From the IMG/VR virus record IMGVR_UViG_3300023038_000160: 13,247 nucleotides of DNA. One strand, given 5' to 3'. This stretch comes from a virus (Duplodnaviria > Heunggongvirae > Uroviricota > Caudoviricetes). Both the position numbers and the translations under genes were made by a program. Positions 2,028 to 13,165 of the stretch are shown here, in pieces. The first letter of the stretch is position 1. Each line of letters begins with the position of its first letter. The notes under the pieces were generated by a model. The model made no database searches. It had not been told where the DNA came from and was given only the letters and a program-made list of their open reading frames with translations.

Positions 2028-2045
2028 CAGTTAGAGAAGCTCTTG

Positions 2046-2105
2046 TAGAGGCATTATTGAGTTATTGGTTTTAATATTTTTGTGCCTCTATGGGCTTTTT
2101 TTGCC
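2046..2105 (+). terminator. Putative intrinsic terminator after the secreted-protein gene
   Basis: Perfect 8-bp inverted repeat TAGAGGCA (2046-2053) / TGCCTCTA (2083-2090) followed by GGGCTTTTTTTGCCTTTTT; the loop is long and AT-rich, so efficiency is uncertain. Confidence 0.35.
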
Positions 2106-2787
2106 TTTTTGCAATGTAGGAGAGAGCACAGGAATCGTTAAAATTAATTATTGGGGTATTTAAGGTTATTTTCAGGTGATTTAAGGGTATTAAACTTGAT
2201 TTAATTGGTTAAAATATAAACAGATAGTTCTGTATCTTATTGATTTATAAGGTTATTTTTAAATAAAGGTAAATAAAAAATAAATAGCTATAAATACATC
2301 TTAATACCTATATCCCTTCCCTTATGGCTAGATTGCGAGAGGTGCTTAACGCGATTTTCAGCGCCCCCCGATCTGGAAAATCCAGAATCCCCAAATATCA
2401 GCAAGGAATTTCTTGCACAATCAACATCGTTTTTACCTATTAAATCATTACACAGAAAGCCTTTCTGTAATGCCTCTCACTAAACTTTCACTAAACACGA
2501 GAATGATCGGTTTTATGTCGGATCTGATGCTAGAAACAGCACCACGTCTCACAAGGGCTGTAAGCGATGAAACCAGTGTTTATGCGGGTGCGGGTCAAAA
2601 TATAGGCCAAAATCCATTTAACATAATAATCATAATATGCACTAAGGAACACATAGAACGCCTTGAATTGATGTATCATGGGAAAAGTGATGGATTTTTT
2701 ACGTAGGAGCACGAGAGGGCTTCTGTTTACTTTTGTGTGCTATGAAATATAATTAAAGGTTTTTTTGTTTTTATTGTGTGAAGTGGT

Positions 2788-3230
2788 GGATTACACAGGG
2801 GAATAGATTAAATGGTGTTCTGTTTATACAGGTTTATTTGTTAGATCAACAATTTGGCATTTCTAAACAGATGTTTGAACGTTGCCAAATGTCTTGACAA
2901 CACAAGAAAAGGGCTTGCTATGCCACGCATTACACGAAATAAGGCTGTAAAAACAAAATAAATTTTAAAATTTGCACAAACGAGAAAACTCGTTCAGAAA
3001 CAAGCAGAACAATTTTTAGCCAACAATTTCTGATGGTGTGCTGTAAGCCGCATTACACAAGGCTTTGCGAAAGTGATGTAAAAGTGAAGAAAGTAAGAAT
3101 TGCACTTTTAAGCTACTTTTTCATTGAATTTTTAGTATGGAATTACACAGGAATAAGTTAGGGATATTCTATGATTTACACAGGGAATATAGGGGGATTA
3201 TGGCACACACATAGAAAGGCATTACACAGG
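2788..3230 (+). repeat. Array of same-orientation motif copies, consensus G(C/A)ATTACACAGG(G)
   Basis: Copies at 2790-2799, 3142-3151, 3221-3230 (exact ATTACACAGG) and variants at 2929-2937, 3052-3062, 3174-3185; further variants outside this span at 4353-4364 and 4435-4444. Three copies extend to ...CAGGG(G)AAT. Irregular spacing, all on the + strand. Confidence 0.6.
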
Positions 3231-3276
3231 GTGAGTGCTATGTGACAAATGGATGTAACGGTAGGTCATAGTGAGC

Positions 3277-3416
3277 TACCCCCTATCAAGTCTAACAGGG
3301 GTTTATAAAGAATAATAAACCGATGATACCCCTATCAATATTGATACCCCTATTAACTTTGATATGACTACCCCTATCAAGTCTGATACCCCTACCCCTA
3401 TCAAAACTGATACCCG
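3277..3416 (+). repeat. Iteron cluster, core (G/C)(A/T)TACCCCTATCAA, candidate replication origin
   Basis: Direct repeats at 3277-3294, 3325-3338, 3343-3356, 3368-3380, 3385-3404 and a partial copy at 3409-3416, spaced 18-24 bp (about two helical turns), immediately followed by a very AT-rich tract (3417-3490) that could act as a DNA unwinding element. Confidence 0.65.
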
Positions 3417-3489
3417 ATAAGAATAAGTTAATAAGAATAATTAAATAATAATTAAATAATATTCTTTATATCTATATATATATGATTTT

Positions 3490-3660
3490 TTGCCTTCCGG
3501 CGTTAGCTTCACTCTCTGGCAAGCAGCCTTACTCCGCTACCTTTCGGGCTACGTTGGCTGGCCCCGTTCCGCTCACACCGAAAGCAAAGCGTTACTTTCT
3601 TCGTGTAACTATCGTTGGCGGTAACGCCCACGAAGAAATACTATTGCGCTATGCGCAGTA
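3490..3660. other. GC-rich structured patch inside the AT-rich noncoding region; candidate cos/pac-like packaging site, primosome site or structured ncRNA
   Basis: Sharp local rise in GC; nested hairpin TTCTTCGTG(3596-3604)...CACGAAGAA(3633-3641) with inner CGTT/AACG stem; motifs CCGTTCCGCTC and GTTACTTTCTTCGTGTAACT resemble, from memory, the terminase-binding R elements and adjacent sequence of lambda cosB. Not verified by alignment. Confidence 0.3.
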
Positions 3661-3722
3661 AGAGTAATCACCTAACCAATCATACTGATTGCTTATGTGT
3701 TAACTCTATCTCTCTACCTCTT

Positions 3723-3880
3723 AATTCCACTTCCTACATTCTGTAGTTGTGTAATTACTCGAAGAGAGAGCGGCTAAAGCTCAATTACACTCTGCTTTCC
3801 TCGTGTAATTTCACTAAGCCTCAATACAATTCCACTTCCTACATTTAATAACTCTCGTTATTCTCTGTAGTTGTGTAATT
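3723..3880 (+). repeat. Split direct repeat: AATTCCACTTCCTACATT x2 and CTGTAGTTGTGTAATT x2
   Basis: 18-mer at 3723-3740 and 3828-3845; 16-mer at 3741-3756 and 3865-3880; the two halves are adjacent in copy 1 and separated by a 19-bp insert in copy 2. GTGTAATT also occurs at 3809-3816 and, inverted, at 3782-3789. Confidence 0.55.
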
Positions 3881-4509
3881 GTTTTCGGTGGAAAAGCCAG
3901 AGGCGACACCGAAAGAGAATTCTGATCTTATTAATCTTATCTATCTTAGTTATCTTACTTACTTATCTTACTTTATCTACTTTATTATTAATAATAGCTT
4001 TATAAGCTCTATGTAGCTCTCTGACGCAAGAAACAGAGTTCAGGAAGGGAATCACCTTAGAAAAGTGTTCTTTGCGTCATAATGTGTTTTATGAAGGATT
4101 CAGAGGTGTTTCATAACAGGAATGTATAGAGGATACTTTAGGTAATTAAAAATAAGGGGTCTAAATGCTTCTCTAACAGCATTAAGCAGGGTAGAGAATG
4201 GAAACGCATTGCCTACACATATAAGCTCACTACAGAGCTTTACATAGCGTTTTATAAAGTGACTCTCTATCTTATATCTACAATCACCTTTTCATATACC
4301 TAACAAATACAAAATAAGCCCCTTAAATAAGCCTCTGGCGAGCTAAACAGCCATTACATAAGGGAATGTATTGCTTTTATCAAAATCTCGTTAGAACGCG
4401 TTTTAGAGCGTTTTAGACAATAATGAAGAATAGCACTACACAGGAGAGCACGAATTGTTAAGCAAAAATGTAAGTGCATGAAAAAGATCAGTTTTTTTGT
4501 GAAAAGGTA

Positions 4510-4538
4510 TTGACAAATGTTTCTTTATATGTAATAAT
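4510..4538 (+). promoter_or_regulatory. Sigma70-type promoter for the regulator/replication operon
   Basis: TTGACA (4510-4515), 17-bp spacer, AATAAT (4533-4538) with extended -10 TG at 4530-4531; a ~100-nt leader containing a short hairpin and T-run precedes the first gene. Confidence 0.5.
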
Positions 4539-4648
4539 AGGTATTAGAGGGACAGAAAACATTCTTCTCTAAATAATCAAAATCAATGCACTTTGAAGCC
4601 GTCAGGCTTGCAAGGTGTTTTTTCTTTTAACTGAATAAGGAGTTTTTT

Positions 4649-5027: not shown

Positions 5028-5080
5028 TTTTTATCACCATAGTAGCGCCGTAGAGCGTGATTACATCAAGGAGATTTTTA

Positions 5081-5749
5081 ATGATTAAACATACAAAACC
5101 TTTTTTAGGAATAGATTATGACTTACTAGCAATCACTTCCCTGGTGATTAACGGCAAAACAAAAGAAGTAAAACTACACCATAAGATCATTTATTCTTAT
5201 TTGTTAAGTTTATCTGGCACATACCAAAAGGTAACACCATCTTTGAAAGGTATTGGTGAGCGGTTAGGAGTAGGTACAGATCAGACGGTACGCCGTCATA
5301 TCAAAGATCTTGTTTCTTTTGGATGGTTGAAGATTGAGGAAAGGGCAGGTAGCACAAATGCTTATATTGTCCTTCCTTATGAACAAGAAGCCAAAACACA
5401 ACAAGAAGCTACCGTTAAAGCTGTTCCTGAACAGCTTCCCCCTACAGAAGATAATAAAGAGTCTTCTTTTGATGTTCTTGATGATTGGGATGCGCCTTTG
5501 CCGTGGGAGACGGAAGAAACACCTGTTTCATCAAGTGAAAAGGTAGCTAATGATAATGAGGAGGATGTGTTAGAGAATTTTGCCTCTCTTATCTGCCAGC
5601 AGAAAAACACCAGAACAGGAGGGGCATCCTTTATAGAATTTGCAACATCGTTAGCCTATAAGCACAGGTTAAAGCTACCAAATGGTATTGAGGCATATTT
5701 TTCTAAGAATTACCCAAATGTGTATGATGACTTTGATATTCCATTTTAA
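5081..5749 (+). CDS. Winged-helix protein with acidic C-terminal region; candidate iteron-binding replication initiator
   Basis: ATG at 5081 with AAGGAG 8 nt upstream (the track's 5057 start is a GTG without SD); wHTH-like segment SLKGIGERLGVGTDQTVRRHIKDLVSFGWLKIEE; D/E-rich region in the C-terminal half; located downstream of the iteron cluster. The Rep role is inferred from context. Confidence 0.45.
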   Translation: MIKHTKPFLGIDYDLLAITSLVINGKTKEVKLHHKIIYSYLLSLSGTYQKVTPSLKGIGERLGVGTDQTVRRHIKDLVSFGWLKIEERAGSTNAYIVLPYEQEAKTQQEATVKAVPEQLPPTEDNKESSFDVLDDWDAPLPWETEETPVSSSEKVANDNEEDVLENFASLICQQKNTRTGGASFIEFATSLAYKHRLKLPNGIEAYFSKNYPNVYDDFDIPF

Positions 5750-7839: not shown

Positions 7840-8868
7840 ATGATTCTAGGTAATGATTACGTTGATTTAGCTCCTCTGTTCTCTGCGCATAGCACTAGAA
7901 ATTATCTACTGTCTACCCTTGACTTCACTGATCCGGTGGGCGTTAGTTCTCATAAAGTAGCTGTTTCCCAGCTTGTCGAAAGCAACGAATCTCTGTTCAA
8001 CAAAGAAACCTCTCGTTTCTCTTCTGAGCATAACGTGACTAAGCGTGAACAAGGTAAAGAATGGCTGATCGAAATCCCGTATTTTCTTCGTGAAGATGTG
8101 ATTCGTCCTTCTGATGTTCAAGGCAAACGTAAACCTGGCACTGATTTTCAGGAAACACTCACTGATATTTATGCTGAGTATGTTGCTAAACATCACGTAG
8201 CGTATCAGCGTACAAAAGAGAGCGTATTGGCTGCATCTCTGTTTAGTGGTCGCACCTACACGCCTAAAACTGATGATGTTCTTATCGAGTGGGGCAAGCT
8301 GTTTAACGTATCAGCTATGAAAGCCACTGTGAACGCTTCCAGCACTGACACCACGAAGATTTTTAAAGAATTTGATCAGATTGCTACTGACATTATCGAG
8401 AAAGCACAAAGCCAGGCGGCTGCTGTAGAGCGTATTGTTGTTTTCTGTAAGCCGGAAGCCTTCTCTGCAATTCGATTCTCTGCGGGTATGGCAAACGCAT
8501 TCCAGTATGTAAGCCCACTGGAAGAGGGAAATGTTGTGTATCAGCGTCGTGACCTGCTACCAGGGGTGACAGCGTTCACTATTCCAGGAACTAACATTGA
8601 TGTTATTAAACTGGTAGATCCGCTACACCTTGCACATATGACTTCTGATGCGGTTGCGGTTCCGAAGTTTGCTAAAGGCTCTAATGTATATCAGAACATC
8701 TACGGGGCTGCTTCCAGCACCTTTGAACTGATTAATTCCGCTCCTGCTGAGGTGTACAGCTATAGCTATGAATCTTCTCGTGGTGATGCTGTTAACGTTG
8801 TTACAGAGAATAGCCAGATGGTTGTAAACCACGGCGTTGGCTTCTCCGTTCAAATCACTGTAAAATAA
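7840..8868 (+). CDS. Putative major capsid protein, lambda gpE-like (342 aa)
   Basis: RBS AAGGA; length matches lambda E (341 aa); by-eye matches to the recalled lambda E sequence: RIVVFCKPEAFSAIRF vs IIVFDPKGWALFRSF, LAASLFSGRTYT vs SAVLKGKYT, FELINSAP vs FTMIQSAP, and a C-terminal FSVQ vs FVSVQ; followed by a strong terminator. Confidence 0.6.
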   Translation: MILGNDYVDLAPLFSAHSTRNYLLSTLDFTDPVGVSSHKVAVSQLVESNESLFNKETSRFSSEHNVTKREQGKEWLIEIPYFLREDVIRPSDVQGKRKPGTDFQETLTDIYAEYVAKHHVAYQRTKESVLAASLFSGRTYTPKTDDVLIEWGKLFNVSAMKATVNASSTDTTKIFKEFDQIATDIIEKAQSQAAAVERIVVFCKPEAFSAIRFSAGMANAFQYVSPLEEGNVVYQRRDLLPGVTAFTIPGTNIDVIKLVDPLHLAHMTSDAVAVPKFAKGSNVYQNIYGAASSTFELINSAPAEVYSYSYESSRGDAVNVVTENSQMVVNHGVGFSVQITVK

Positions 8869-9174: not shown

Positions 9175-11001
9175 ATGTTAGAAATTAACACTTCTAAAAT
9201 TAAGAATACAGTAACATTTAGTGTAGATAAAGACAGCTTAAAAAAAACGAAAGACTCTATTACAGGCTTAAAGGAATTTGCAGAAAACATCAAGCCAGCT
9301 AAATTAAGGTTTGATAGTGTCACTAAAGGCTATAAGAAAGCACAAAGCGAAGTAGACAAGATTGCTCAACAGAAAGCTAAAACAGAAAAACAGAATCAAA
9401 GAGCACAAGCTGCCGCAGCAAGAGCACAGGCAAGGCAACAGGCACAAATAGCAGCACGTAAAGAGAAAGCAGAATTAAAACTTCTCGATGTGTCAAGCTC
9501 TATCAGTGCAATGCACCGTCTCTCTGTAGCGGAACAATACAAAGCTATTGCACAGGCTAGAGAGATAGCAAAACAATATGAGCAAGGCGCTATCTCGCTT
9601 GCACGTATGAATAGCCAGATGAAACGCTTACAACAACAACAACGTAAGATTAATGGCAACAGAAAAGCTCAATTTGCCCCCGTTAAGGGAGGATCAGGGA
9701 ATTCCGCCACTATGGGCGCTCTGTTATTTGGAGGCGCTACGGCTGCTGCTGGCGTGATGGCTGTTAGTAAAACCTCTGAATTTATGGCTAATAGCTTTGC
9801 GAATGCTGAAACACAAGGAGAATTAATCCAACGTGCAAGGCTTGGCGGTGTAGACGTTAACCAGATGTACAACATTACAGAATGGGCGTATAGAAACGGC
9901 GTTGACTCTATGATGGGTGATCAAGGGGCTAGAAAATACCTGGATCAGATGAAAGATGTTAGGGAACGTGCCGCAAAATCCTACAGTGAAGCTGAATTGG
10001 TGAAAGACAAGAAAGGAAAATCTGAATGGAAAGGCGGTGATAACGGTATTAATGAACTTCTAAACATCGGTGTTATTAACAAAAGCGACCTTAAAAAATT
10101 TGCTGATAATCCGGCTGGATTAATTTCTAAGGCTGTTAATGGAATGATGAAAAAAGGGTTTTCAGACTCCCAAATTGGACAACGTTTAGAAGACCTGGGC
10201 GATGATTTGATGCTTACATCAAAATATTGGCAACGTTCCGTTAAAGATGTACAAGAAAGTATTAATCAGCAAAAAGCCTCTGGAAAATGGCTAACAGAAA
10301 CACAGCAAGACTCTATTGTTAAATTCAGAGAACTAAACAGACAGCTTTCACAGCTTTCTGATGCAAGACAAGTAGCATTTGTAGACGGCTTTATGAAATC
10401 TCTCGATCCAAAAGTAACGGAAGAGTTTATGAAAAACCTTTCTAATCTCACTCCGTATTTTACGAAGCTTGGAGAAGCTACAGGAAGTCTCTTTGAAGCC
10501 ATTATGAAGATTGTAAACTGGTTTAATCGTAATGATGATAAGACAGATGCTATTCAGAAAAATATGGGAGATGCACCGCCATTAAGCAATGAAGGAATGA
10601 AACAGAATCTTTCTAACCTCGTTCCTGACCAATATAAAGGCGCTGGCACTGCAACAACTACACCTGATAATACTCATTCCATCTTTAACACAATTAAGGG
10701 ATGGCTTTTCGATGATAATTCTTCTGTGTCAGATGTAAAAATGTCAGTCAGCGAAGCACCGATAACCAATCTCAAACAGGGTGCTTTAAATAATCTTGCA
10801 ATGACAACTCCGGCTTATAATTTATCTCCTGTGTTTAATCTGAATCCTACATTTGAAGTGGTAACAGAGGTTCCTCTTACTATTAATTCTGACACATCAA
10901 GATTAAGCGATTATGTGGATTTTACAGCGAGAGCAAGTCGGGATAGCTTCTTGAAATCATTAACATTAACCAGCTTATCAGGACAATCTAACGGCGGGTA
11001 A
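9175..11001 (+). CDS. Large coiled-coil protein with Gly/Ala-rich hydrophobic segment (608 aa); candidate scaffold, tape-measure-like or ejection-type virion protein
   Basis: RBS AAGGGGGA; N-terminal ~170 aa rich in Q/A/K/R (AQQKAKTEKQNQRAQAAAARAQARQQAQIAARKEKAELK), then GGSGNSATMGALLFGGATAAAGVMAV (~9697-9775), then an S/T/N-rich C-terminal part. Function inferred from composition only. Confidence 0.55.
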   Translation: MLEINTSKIKNTVTFSVDKDSLKKTKDSITGLKEFAENIKPAKLRFDSVTKGYKKAQSEVDKIAQQKAKTEKQNQRAQAAAARAQARQQAQIAARKEKAELKLLDVSSSISAMHRLSVAEQYKAIAQAREIAKQYEQGAISLARMNSQMKRLQQQQRKINGNRKAQFAPVKGGSGNSATMGALLFGGATAAAGVMAVSKTSEFMANSFANAETQGELIQRARLGGVDVNQMYNITEWAYRNGVDSMMGDQGARKYLDQMKDVRERAAKSYSEAELVKDKKGKSEWKGGDNGINELLNIGVINKSDLKKFADNPAGLISKAVNGMMKKGFSDSQIGQRLEDLGDDLMLTSKYWQRSVKDVQESINQQKASGKWLTETQQDSIVKFRELNRQLSQLSDARQVAFVDGFMKSLDPKVTEEFMKNLSNLTPYFTKLGEATGSLFEAIMKIVNWFNRNDDKTDAIQKNMGDAPPLSNEGMKQNLSNLVPDQYKGAGTATTTPDNTHSIFNTIKGWLFDDNSSVSDVKMSVSEAPITNLKQGALNNLAMTTPAYNLSPVFNLNPTFEVVTEVPLTINSDTSRLSDYVDFTARASRDSFLKSLTLTSLSGQSNGG

Positions 11002-11035: not shown

Positions 11036-11749
11036 ATGGCGACCGCCGGGATTTTAACCATACGTGCAGCAAATACTCCAGAACAACACGTTCAGGCTGT
11101 TTACAAAGCAGAACAAGATATAAACTCTACAAAAAACGAAAATAGCAAAGCTAATAAAACAAAAGGAGAAAATGGGTTTGCTATTGTTACCAGTGGCTTG
11201 GCATCTTCTGGCAATGACGTTTATGAAAATTATATGGCACTGGCCTTTGACAGTGTTGACGATGTGAACGTGAGACGTTCGGCAGATGTTACAAGCTACC
11301 CCGTAGAAAATGGTGCTACTGTGTCTGATCACGTTCAAATTAAAAACAATAAGTTTTCTCTTAAAGGAAGGATCACTGAAACACCGATTAAAAGCGATCC
11401 TGGCTTGTTAAAGAGTGCAGGGGTGAACGGGAACAGAAGATCATTAGCTATCGACTACCTGAATCAGATTATGGACAGTAGACAGCCTTTTCTTCTTGTT
11501 ACAGAAAATAAAACTTTTGAGAACGTTGTTTTAACAGGAATCGAATACACAGAAGAGGCAAGCGAATCCCTGGTATTTGATCTTAGCTTTGAGCAAATAA
11601 GATTAGTTTCTTATGGCACTGTGAACACTGTAGCTATCAAAACACAGCCATCTAAGAACATCGGGGCTAATATGAAAAAACGTGTTAACACTGAAAAATC
11701 AAGTAGTGAAGGTGAAGACACTATTACTCCTGCCTTTAAACAGGAATAG
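11036..11749 (+). CDS. Hypothetical protein (237 aa), possible virion-associated protein
   Basis: RBS AAGGAAAA; same operon as the 608-aa gene; no family recognised. Confidence 0.5.
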   Translation: MATAGILTIRAANTPEQHVQAVYKAEQDINSTKNENSKANKTKGENGFAIVTSGLASSGNDVYENYMALAFDSVDDVNVRRSADVTSYPVENGATVSDHVQIKNNKFSLKGRITETPIKSDPGLLKSAGVNGNRRSLAIDYLNQIMDSRQPFLLVTENKTFENVVLTGIEYTEEASESLVFDLSFEQIRLVSYGTVNTVAIKTQPSKNIGANMKKRVNTEKSSSEGEDTITPAFKQE

Positions 11750-11830: not shown

Positions 11831-13165
11831 CTATGGCGTTGTTTTACGCCTTAAATTTGATTTTTTATTGATTGATAAGCCTTTCTCTATTTCAGGGTAG
11901 CGTAGAAGCTCAATATATTTTTTAAGCTCTACTGGAGAAGCTGCATTCTTGCTATATGTGCGGAATGTCTCTGTATTGCCGCGTGTATGGCCCAGGAGAA
12001 GGGCGATCCTGTCTTCTGGAATTTGATTTCGATCAAGAAGCTGTGCTACTCCGTGTCTCAGAGAATGAAACACCTTCCTTTCTGTTCCCTTTTCCCCTAA
12101 AGCCTTTCGTTTAGCTCTTGTAAATCTCTGCGTGTGCCACGTAGAGCGTTTACCATCAGCACGCTCTGTAATGCTGGCGTGATAGAACAAAAAGCCATTA
12201 TGAGGCTTTTCACGCAGCGACAACACCAACGGAGTGATAAGGCTATGTACAGGCACAACACGTGCCGCAGCTTTCGTTTTTCCCTGTGTGATTTCAAAAC
12301 ACAGCACACCTTCGATCTCTTTCACATCGTCTATTGTGAGACTTGCTATCTCATTGATCCGCATACCTGTATATAAACCGATAAGACACAAAGCTATCAT
12401 TTCTTTGTTTTCTGCTGAATTACCGGAAAATACTTGCAACACCTGCAATAGCTCTTTGTTAGAAAATGCCTCGTAGCTCTCTCTACTTTGTGCCACATCA
12501 AGCCTATGCCCTCGCCAGGGGGAGAGCGCCCTTTCTGGCGCATCGTGGTAACGTGATGAAGCTAACTCCCATAGCTGGGCCATTGGGCTGATATAATTTG
12601 CAATTGATTGTTGTGAAAGGGTTTTTTGCATGTGTTCAATCCAGCCTGTAACAGTGGTGCGGCTTACATCTTGCAATGCAATATCAGGCTTTTTACGGTA
12701 GGAGAGAAACATCTCTACCGCTTTTCTTGCCTTAGCTAAAGTGGCTGGCTTCTTCTTCGTGCTGTTAATAGTCAGGTAGATTTCAAGAATTTTAAGCAAT
12801 GATGGACACGAAGACGCTGTATCTTGCATTCTGGTAGCTGTTTTGGCGTATTTAGCCTTACTGCGTAACAGTTCCAGCGTGTTCTCTATTGTGCTGTTTA
12901 CAGGAGCGACACTCTCGCGTAAGCAATGGTATTCATCTGCAATCTGATCACGCTTTCTACGTGCAACACGAAGATTACTTGTGTGCAGACTCCTGACAAA
13001 CGTCCTTTTTCCTTCAAAAAAGGGCTGCATATACACAGGCAGCGTGATCCTTAAATAGTAGTTACCGTAAGAATCACAGATTATGTATTGATTGGGCTTG
13101 TATCTCATAAACTCCCCGGCTAAAGTGTCGGAGCGTTTGTAATGTGAAAATTGATTGTAACGCAT
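11831..13165 (-). CDS. Tyrosine recombinase / phage-type integrase (444 aa) with N-terminal arm-binding-like domain
   Basis: Catalytic signature visible in the translation: TGMRINEI (Arg), HSLRHG (His-x-x-Arg), LLGHTRGNTETFRTYS (His and catalytic Tyr). An alternative start at 13108 (MRYKPNQ..., GGGGAG 3 nt upstream) is possible. Codon composition looks more GC-rich than the rest of the island. Confidence 0.85.
   Translation of the reverse strand: MRYNQFSHYKRSDTLAGEFMRYKPNQYIICDSYGNYYLRITLPVYMQPFFEGKRTFVRSLHTSNLRVARRKRDQIADEYHCLRESVAPVNSTIENTLELLRSKAKYAKTATRMQDTASSCPSLLKILEIYLTINSTKKKPATLAKARKAVEMFLSYRKKPDIALQDVSRTTVTGWIEHMQKTLSQQSIANYISPMAQLWELASSRYHDAPERALSPWRGHRLDVAQSRESYEAFSNKELLQVLQVFSGNSAENKEMIALCLIGLYTGMRINEIASLTIDDVKEIEGVLCFEITQGKTKAAARVVPVHSLITPLVLSLREKPHNGFLFYHASITERADGKRSTWHTQRFTRAKRKALGEKGTERKVFHSLRHGVAQLLDRNQIPEDRIALLLGHTRGNTETFRTYSKNAASPVELKKYIELLRYPEIEKGLSINKKSNLRRKTTP

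Follow-up and report, generated by a model that had tools for sequence, protein, structure and literature searches.

What does a short, GC-rich (guanine- and cytosine-rich) sequence do in the middle of the AT-rich noncoding DNA of a mobile island, and why is it kept when the parts around it are exchanged? The question is raised by positions 3490-3660, here called the GC island, of IMG/VR virus record IMGVR_UViG_3300023038_000160, a stretch of 13,247 nucleotides that was analyzed as a whole and is referred to as the window. The window is a ~13-kb, low-GC Escherichia coli island inserted at tRNA-Thr (thrW) downstream of proBA, and it looks like a member of an apparently undescribed family of satellites of virulent phi92/rV5-like myophages. 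A first-pass annotation had offered two functions for the GC island, a cos/pac-like packaging site or a structured RNA. We tentatively favor a third, in which the GC island makes up the half of the satellite origin that does not depend on the initiator and serves, as a folded single strand, in helicase loading or priming. Origin function is the best supported of the functions considered because the module is universally coupled to the unwinding region, is independent of the initiator, can be replaced by another module, and behaves symmetrically with respect to strand.

Conservation of the GC island across satellite islands

The GC island contains 53.8% GC, against a window average of 38.5%, and is bordered on its left by a stretch of 13.8% GC (3409-3488) and on its right by one of 38.5% GC (3661-3925). 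A 171-nt GC scan of the 13.2 kb peaks at 0.544 at position 3492, and 0.05% of such segments equal or exceed the value of 3490-3660. The first-pass description of a GC-rich island amid AT-rich noncoding DNA is thus borne out, this being the highest-GC 171-nt stretch of the window, and its placement between the iterons (3280-3408) and two split direct repeats (3721-3757 and 3826-3882) was also correct, the repeats being hairpin-forming. An open reading frame (ORF) with an ATG start (3482-3661) extends across the island, and the idea that it encodes a 59-residue protein deserves almost no credence: single-base indels among close relatives would break the frame, the ORF has no PHROG match, and RefSeq annotates no gene at the locus. 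The only tRNA or tmRNA in the window is tRNA-Thr at 23-98.

Diverged relatives were gathered from E. coli genomes (loci L023, L025, L035, and L036), from one genome per species of Enterobacter, Citrobacter, and another Escherichia together with one probably mis-binned metagenome-assembled genome (MAG), and from metagenomes (56 contigs). In all island types examined the order of elements is iterons, AT-rich segment, folded module, further hairpins, a strong rightward promoter, and the operon, with the module starting ~0-30 nt from the AT-rich segment and always in the same orientation. The iterons at the matching place in relatives fall into at least six unrelated families, while the core of the module is invariant in 53 of 55 alignment columns (11 sequences from five diverged island types), and whenever the window is compared with a diverged island, no other conserved DNA block scores as high. 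At L025 the initiator position is occupied by a DUF6945 protein unrelated to the window's initiator (BLASTP E = 0.22), yet the core is the same; the capsid proteins of islands sharing the core show 18% identity. The scans that collected the relatives demanded that 23 nt of the core match exactly, and the conservation result is biased to that extent, whereas the 35 nt to the right of this 23-mer were unselected by the scans and are equally conserved. Between 3540 and 3565 the relatives show one-base length differences in homopolymers (CTTTCGGG/CTTT-GGG, CGTTGG/CG-TGG, GCCCCG/GCC-CG), which may be real variants or sequencing errors. The module is the one sequence that these satellites keep while swapping initiators, iterons, capsid genes, and probably helpers, and a single sequence left unchanged among swapped parts suggests that it must contact some partner common to all of them.

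Among 5,426 complete E. coli genomes, 750 have the noncoding region of the island family and 438 have the GC island, which is 95-99% identical in 425. Unbiased blastn in E. coli finds the GC island to be bimodal, either near-identical or absent. Two islands without the core, L035 and L036, carry at the same place an unrelated, GC-richer module that is strongly folded (z = -4.2), that shares the 8-mer CCGCTCAC in a hairpin loop, and that ends in the same GCGC hairpin. Neither 3400-3950 nor 3495-3665 has a relative among 50,697 phage and 72,556 PLSDB plasmid records, even at E ≤ 10; blastn against the phage records at that threshold returned chance matches inside genes only.

A fold maintained by compensatory changes

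As single-stranded DNA, 3485-3665 folds better than nearly all shuffled versions of itself on the two strands (z = -2.75 and -2.71; 2/200 shuffles fold as well), and with DNA energy parameters a three-way junction is predicted on both. The stronger evidence for the predicted fold is comparative, in that its helices covary in related sequences. Across island types A-F, each of the junction helices J1, J2, and J3 takes four to five distinct forms, complementary throughout. J1 is found as TTTCTTCGTG/CACGAAGAAA, GTGCAA/TTGCAC, TGTGCC/GGCACA, and TCGTGC/GCACGA; J2 as TAAC/GTTG, TGGC/GCCA, AGGC/GCCT, and TAAC/GTTA; and J3 as GCG/CGC, CCGT/ACGG, TGAC/GTCA, TCGT/ACGA, and CTGAC/GTCAG. Relatives have an extra hairpin between the junction and the GCGC hairpin, in three versions, that is absent from the window. 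A closing helix, P1, may enclose the core, on weaker support than the junction has: its inner half comes in four versions in relatives (GCGTC/GACGC, GGCG/CGCT, TGG/CCA, and TTC.GG/CC.GAA), and of 21 variants, 20 have a duplex energy better than that of shuffles, though by a modest margin (z from +0.5 to -3.6).

Comparison with relatives also bears on the shape of the nested inverted repeats that the first-pass annotation had described. The outer repeat is J1 itself, TTTCTTCGTG (3596-3605) pairing with CACGAAGAAA (3629-3638), and it stands; in place of the single inner CGTT/AACG stem, the relatives favor two inner hairpins, TAAC/GTTG (3606-3609 with 3614-3617) and GCG/CGC (3618-3620 with 3625-3627, loop GTAA).

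A covariance-model alignment of types B-F contains 88.9% paired cells, compared with 79.4% in shuffles, and a covariation of 0.187 versus 0.076 when shuffled, a value that 0 of 500 shuffles reach and that slid controls (at most 0.07) do not approach. This model, R1, was built without the window's island type; on that type its matches are weak (E = 0.16-0.9), and the window itself is not found at E ≤ 1. In types D-F, R1 also left the register off by one column. The covariation counts for helices 2-3 are underestimated as a result, and the explicit table of helix arms for types A-F is cleaner evidence than the alignment counts.

Folding does not end with the GC island but persists to ~3925, through the hairpins listed in Table 1 at 3678-3690, 3721-3757, 3768-3782, 3826-3882, and 3883-3914. 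With RNA parameters, z scores for the whole block in eight island types range from -2.7 to -9.8 for the minus strand and from -1.9 to -9.0 for the plus strand. A long-range helix between 4004-4023 and 4233-4252 was considered and found unsupported, one variant having a G-G opposition from changes on both sides.

Signals bearing on RNA, DNA, and strand

Compensatory changes that keep base pairs fit a structured RNA and a folded single-stranded DNA equally. The structured-RNA idea of the first-pass annotation is accordingly upheld as far as a folded single strand is concerned, on the strength of covariation, while on RNA versus DNA the evidence conflicts. RNA folding energies favor the minus strand and DNA folding energies are equal on the two strands. 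Wobble (G-T/G-U) pairs make up 3-11% of predicted pairs, similarly on both strands. The J3 loops GTAA, GAAA, GTGA, and GAGA are GNRA-like on the plus strand, and two population variants, at L037 in J1 and at L012 in P1, give T-G pairs that would be tolerable in a plus-strand RNA. A strand call from energies, wobble pairs, and loop types was rejected, as these signals contradict each other.

Consensus scans of four island types, with phage-specific promoters outside their scope, found no sigma-70 promoter or terminator bracketing the block on either strand. Searched with the whole window at E ≤ 1, Rfam 15 gave nothing for the region; searched with 3400-4000 at E ≤ 10, it gave chance matches only. 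The core shows no consistent complementarity of at least 9 nt within the islands and shares no 12-mer with phi92 positions 1-50,000, the remaining two thirds of that genome being covered by blastn alone; a role for the core as an antisense partner of island or phi92 sequences was discarded on these results. Resemblances in the module to a sigma-54 promoter, RfaH ops, Ter, and a DnaA box, noticed by eye, were likewise set aside, their spacing or key bases misfitting or their occurrence being limited to a single island type.

The probable packaging signal and the helper phage

The first-pass annotation had likened two motifs of the GC island to elements of lambda cosB and had proposed packaging by a lambdoid helper terminase, citing a capsid gene like lambda E. 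Both motifs lie where claimed (CCGTTCCGCTC at 3564-3574 and GTTACTTTCTTCGTGTAACT at 3591-3610), and a satellite without a terminase gene must hold a packaging signal somewhere. The likeness to lambda, which comes down to the short words CCGTTC and TTCTTCGT..TAACT shared with lambda R3, is nevertheless no better than chance: a local alignment of 3480-3680 with lambda cosQ-cosN-cosB scores 19, where shuffles score 18.3 ± 2.1 and 203 of 500 equal it. The blastn search of the 50,697 phage records fared no better. With up to 2 mismatches allowed, the cosB R-site CGTTTCCKTTCT occurs six times in the whole window and never in 3490-3660, while the cosN-like 12-mer (GGGCGGCGACCT, up to 3 mismatches) is missing from the region and has a whole-window count at chance level. 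The motif TTCTTCGTGTAACT lies in stem J1, and because the sequence of J1 is entirely different in related islands it is not a conserved binding site.

The helper, too, appears not to be lambdoid. The capsid protein does belong to the Phage_cap_E family, but among phages, those with the closest capsid and tape-measure-like proteins are phi92/rV5-like virulent myophages, ~145-150 kb in size and low in GC. Members of this clade end in direct terminal repeats rather than cohesive ends, as seen in Stephanstirmvirinae genomes, with repeats of 342 bp in phage BME3 (PMC12210895; PMC12695924). The window has a 46-bp sequence at 2327-2372 (GCTAGATTGCGAGAGGTGCT joined to TAACGCGATTTTCAGCGCCCCCCGATC) with 95.7% identity to the genomes of phi92 and of many members of Justusliebigvirus. 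Its phi92 counterpart, 318-363, spans the inner boundary (343/344) of the annotated left direct terminal repeat, and weaker phi92-like similarity extends from it to ~2400. Copies of the terminal-repeat boundary are found in more than 40 related loci, and certain further islands resemble the phi92 repeat elsewhere along its length; for L025, a diverged island, no terminal-repeat copy matching known phages was found. Judged by this similarity, 2327-2372 is probably the packaging or terminus signal of the satellite, 1.1 kb from the GC island, and it identifies the helper clade. The region 3490-3925 has no phage match by blastn and no 12-mer in common with the first 50 kb of phi92. Given the chance-level lambda similarity, the lack of R and cosN sites and of any phage match, and the phi92 boundary copy elsewhere, we reject the cos reading, and consider it very unlikely that the GC island is a cos or pac site for any helper terminase.

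A proposed constant half of the origin

How might the GC island act at an origin? We envisage that an island-specific initiator would bind the iterons (3280-3408) and open the AT-rich segment (3409-3488), whereupon the adjoining module would become single-stranded and fold, with P1 around the 61-nt core, the three-way junction, and the GCGC hairpin. The fold would then offer a fixed landing site, common to all islands, for the next step, be it helicase loading or synthesis of the first primer by replication proteins of the host or the helper phage. The order and orientation of the elements, the covarying fold, and the sharing of the core among different initiators and iterons are observed; action of the module as single-stranded DNA at the origin, and the choice of protein that would read it, are inferred. 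Consistent with such a site, the module adjoins the iterons and the unwinding region in fixed orientation, its hairpin fold has been maintained in evolution, and no sigma-70 promoter or terminator surrounds it in four island types.

Arrangements of this kind are not without precedent. In the wider IncQ/RSF1010 layout, iterons and an AT-rich stretch are followed by single-strand initiation (ssi) sites, which the RepB' primase reads. In RSF1010, oriV has two of these sites, ssiA and ssiB, each a hairpin of 40 nt (PMC8567376). The satellite origin resembles it in the order of iterons, AT-rich segment, and hairpin module, in the conservation of the module apart from the iterons, and in the single-strand fold; it differs in having no sequence similarity to RSF1010 and no primase gene, and in presenting one oriented module of ~170 nt, continuing to at least 440 nt, in place of two inverted 40-nt sites. 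The G-site of R1/R100, which in R1 lies downstream of oriR, and the origins of complementary-strand synthesis in G4 and phiX174 are likewise folded single-stranded DNA that starts a strand, near the origin, and are read by host DnaG or PriA. Recognition by a host protein would explain why the module is conserved across different initiators. No phage or plasmid record, however, is detectably similar to the module; AGCGG, present twice on its minus strand, bears at most a faint resemblance to the AAGCGG of PriA sites. Lambdoid origins offer a third parallel, as their iterons vary between phages and the flank beside the AT-rich region is conserved. The satellite initiator is O-like, and its origin also combines a variable part that sets specificity with a constant part, but here the origin lies outside the initiator gene and the constant part is a long, folded noncoding module.

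Several observations weigh against an origin site. No similarity to a known ssi or primosome site was found in 72,556 plasmid and 50,697 phage records, the Pfam and PHROG scans of the island ORFs detected no primase domain, and iteron replicons normally have no need of such a site. The 61 invariant nt exceed what a protein site usually needs. In addition, the conserved folded noncoding DNA extends over at least 440 nt (3485-3925), far beyond known ssi sites, and suits a large RNA better, as do the minus-strand z scores of -5 to -10 for the whole block with RNA parameters (-2.7 in one of eight islands) and the GNRA-like plus-strand J3 loops, which are typical of RNA.

The main rival to the origin site is a transcribed product. 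The GC island might be the conserved core of a large structured noncoding RNA made by the satellite, one of at least 440 nt that would span 3485-3925 and perhaps more, a possibility that we regard as real but on the doubtful side. Such an RNA might control induction, act in antitermination of the main operon, or contact a conserved host machine; in a variant of the same idea it would be a primer or R-loop RNA for the adjoining origin. Covarying helices, a three-way junction, and the conserved loop motifs GGCTAAR, GCCAGAGG, and CCGCTCAC all suit an RNA, and so do a whole block far better folded than shuffles in eight island types, the GNRA-like loops, and the T-G variants at L037 and L012. A frozen core amid covarying stems is typical of functional RNAs, other satellites use RNAs, and the conserved hairpin and T-run (4590-4630) that follow the main promoter (4510-4538) would be a possible target for an antitermination or termination RNA. 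Against this stand the lack of an Rfam family even at E ≤ 10, of a conserved sigma-70 promoter or terminator bracketing the block on either strand, and of a conserved complementary partner for the core elsewhere in the islands or in phi92, together with wobble pairs that are few and about equal on both strands and strand signals that conflict, energies pointing to minus and loops and two variants to plus. Among known satellite RNAs, the CI RNA of P4 belongs to the C4 antisense family of Rfam. SviR is a regulatory RNA of the Vibrio PLE satellite (bioRxiv 10.1101/2022.04.08.487710). Like these, the element of the island is conserved, structured, and noncoding, and lies in a large noncoding region near the origin; it is much larger, however, and has no Rfam match, and no promoter, terminator, or target complementarity was found for it. 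It is possible, if rather unlikely, that the element is a new, satellite-specific large RNA that contacts a conserved host or helper machine such as RNA polymerase or the replisome; direct contact with such a machine would explain why 61 nt are frozen while every island protein has diverged.

Alternatively, proteins could read the GC island as double-stranded DNA, whether as a regulatory, partition, resolution, or supercoiling site or as a GC clamp that limits unwinding, which we consider improbable. Plasmid origins such as that of RK2 do have GC-rich stretches beside AT-rich regions, the invariant core could serve several proteins as a composite platform for binding, and the hairpin arms between 3748 and 3880 hold TGTGTAATT, the reverse of the ATTACACAGG motif of 2788-3230, which suggests protein sites. 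However, J1-J3, the extra hairpin of the relatives, and P1 conserve pairing and not sequence, and pairing kept without sequence argues for selection on a folded single strand or cruciform and not on duplex sequence; a clamp, moreover, has no need for 61 invariant nt.

Features of the noncoding region and of the satellite

The origin and the folded block lie within ~2.6 kb of noncoding DNA (2030-4648), and their parts are collected, with the principal genes, in Table 1. In relatives, the AT-rich segment contains GATC-containing 13-mer-like motifs and ATAAGAnTA repeats.

Table 1. Features of the satellite origin, the folded block, and the principal genes of the window
Feature	Position	Strand	Description
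Iterons	3280-3408		CCCCTATCAA-type repeat in 5 copies, each 18-49 nt from the next
AT-rich segment	3409-3488		presumed DNA unwinding element, from its place between iterons and GC island
P1 left arm	3489-3502		TTTGC then TTCCGGCG; partner 3576-3588
Near-invariant 61-nt core	3516-3576		CTGGCAAGCAGCCTTACTCCGCTACCTTTCGGGCTACGTTGGCTGGCCCCGTTCCGCTCAC
P1 right arm	3576-3588		CACCGAA then GCAAA
Three-way junction	3596-3638		J1 3596-3605/3629-3638; J2 3606-3609/3614-3617; J3 3618-3620/3625-3627
Small conserved hairpin GCGC-TAT-GCGC	3646-3656		TTGCGCTRTGCGC; kept also where the upstream module is unrelated
Hairpin AATCA-TAC-TGATT	3678-3690		relatives have CATC-TAAC-GATG or CAAC-TACC-GTTG there; read directly from sequences
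Long imperfect hairpin K2	3721-3757		first split direct repeat copy; includes TGTGTAATT
Small hairpin GAGC-GGCTAAA-GCTC	3768-3782		loop motif GGCTAAR common to island types
Long hairpin K4	3826-3882		second repeat copy; within conserved block 3817-3903
Terminal hairpin TTTCGGTG/CACCGAAA	3883-3914		loop holds conserved motif GCCAGAGG
Initiator gene	5057-5749	+	HTH_36; lambda O-like/DnaD-like replication initiation families; presumed iteron binder
Capsid protein gene	7840-8868	+	Pfam Phage_cap_E
Tape-measure-like protein gene	9175-11001	+	
Dit-like tail protein gene	11036-11749	+	
Tyrosine integrase gene	11831-13165	-	

The two long hairpins, K2 and K4, are paralogues. K4 has an inner hairpin, AATAAC-TCTC-GTTATT (3847-3862), whose outer pair is A-T in the window and G-C in GC-rich relatives (GATAAC/GTTATC). 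The 20-nt inner hairpin TTTAATAACTCTCGTTATTC belongs to the second copy in the window, whereas most relatives (among them loci L017 and L029) have it in the first, and at L039, L055, L071, and L086 the stretch between the two paralogous hairpins is deleted. On either side of the origin and folded block lie at least 10 copies of a ATTACACAGG-like motif, oriented in opposite directions, with copies at 2788-2799, 3140-3151, 3173-3184, 3219-3230, 4352, and 4436 in the plus orientation and at 3748-3757, 3803-3811, and 3872-3880 in the reverse orientation; they are possibly sites for a regulator or the initiator. Two further noncoding blocks, 2854-2890 (GATGTTTGAACGTTGCCAAATG) and 2970-3000 (hairpin AAACGAGAAAACTCGTTCAG), are kept in otherwise diverged islands. 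The promoter at 4510-4538 is near-consensus (TTGACA, 17 nt, AATAAT). Between it and the first ORF (4649), a conserved hairpin and T-run occupy 4590-4630, a region with 93% identity to a Citrobacter island, which looks like a leader terminator that would hold the operon off until induction.

Members of the island family are inserted at thrW, a tRNA-Gly site, and others, with up to five copies per genome. Neither a terminase nor a portal protein nor a primase was found among the island ORFs in the Pfam and PHROG scans, and a literature search found no description of a phi92/rV5-like phage satellite or of the folded element. Some relatives depart from the window in their neighbors. L023 (NZ_CM168012.1, 1723745-1735810) is a higher-GC relative that adjoins thiMD and is cut by IS1; it has a TIR-domain gene and a small serine recombinase as neighbors and its own iterons and AT-rich segment, and it retains the same core. 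L035 (NZ_CP023061.1) and L036 (NZ_CP010137.1) belong to the same family, but the folded module that follows their AT-rich segment is a different one, and they have a small serine recombinase where the window has a 183-residue secreted protein (1476-2027). L037 (JAEYLX010000052.1) is a 4-kb contig of a MAG labeled 'Bacillota' that carries an E. coli-type island fragment, probably a binning or contamination artefact.

Implications for satellite biology

With the probable packaging signal relocated to the terminal-repeat copy and a helper clade named, the satellite-helper system is directly testable. If the contact that the GC island has preserved is a replication step, it would provide a handle on how a virulent phage's satellites replicate once the phage has taken over the cell. 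If instead the element is an RNA, it would represent a new class of large structured RNA.

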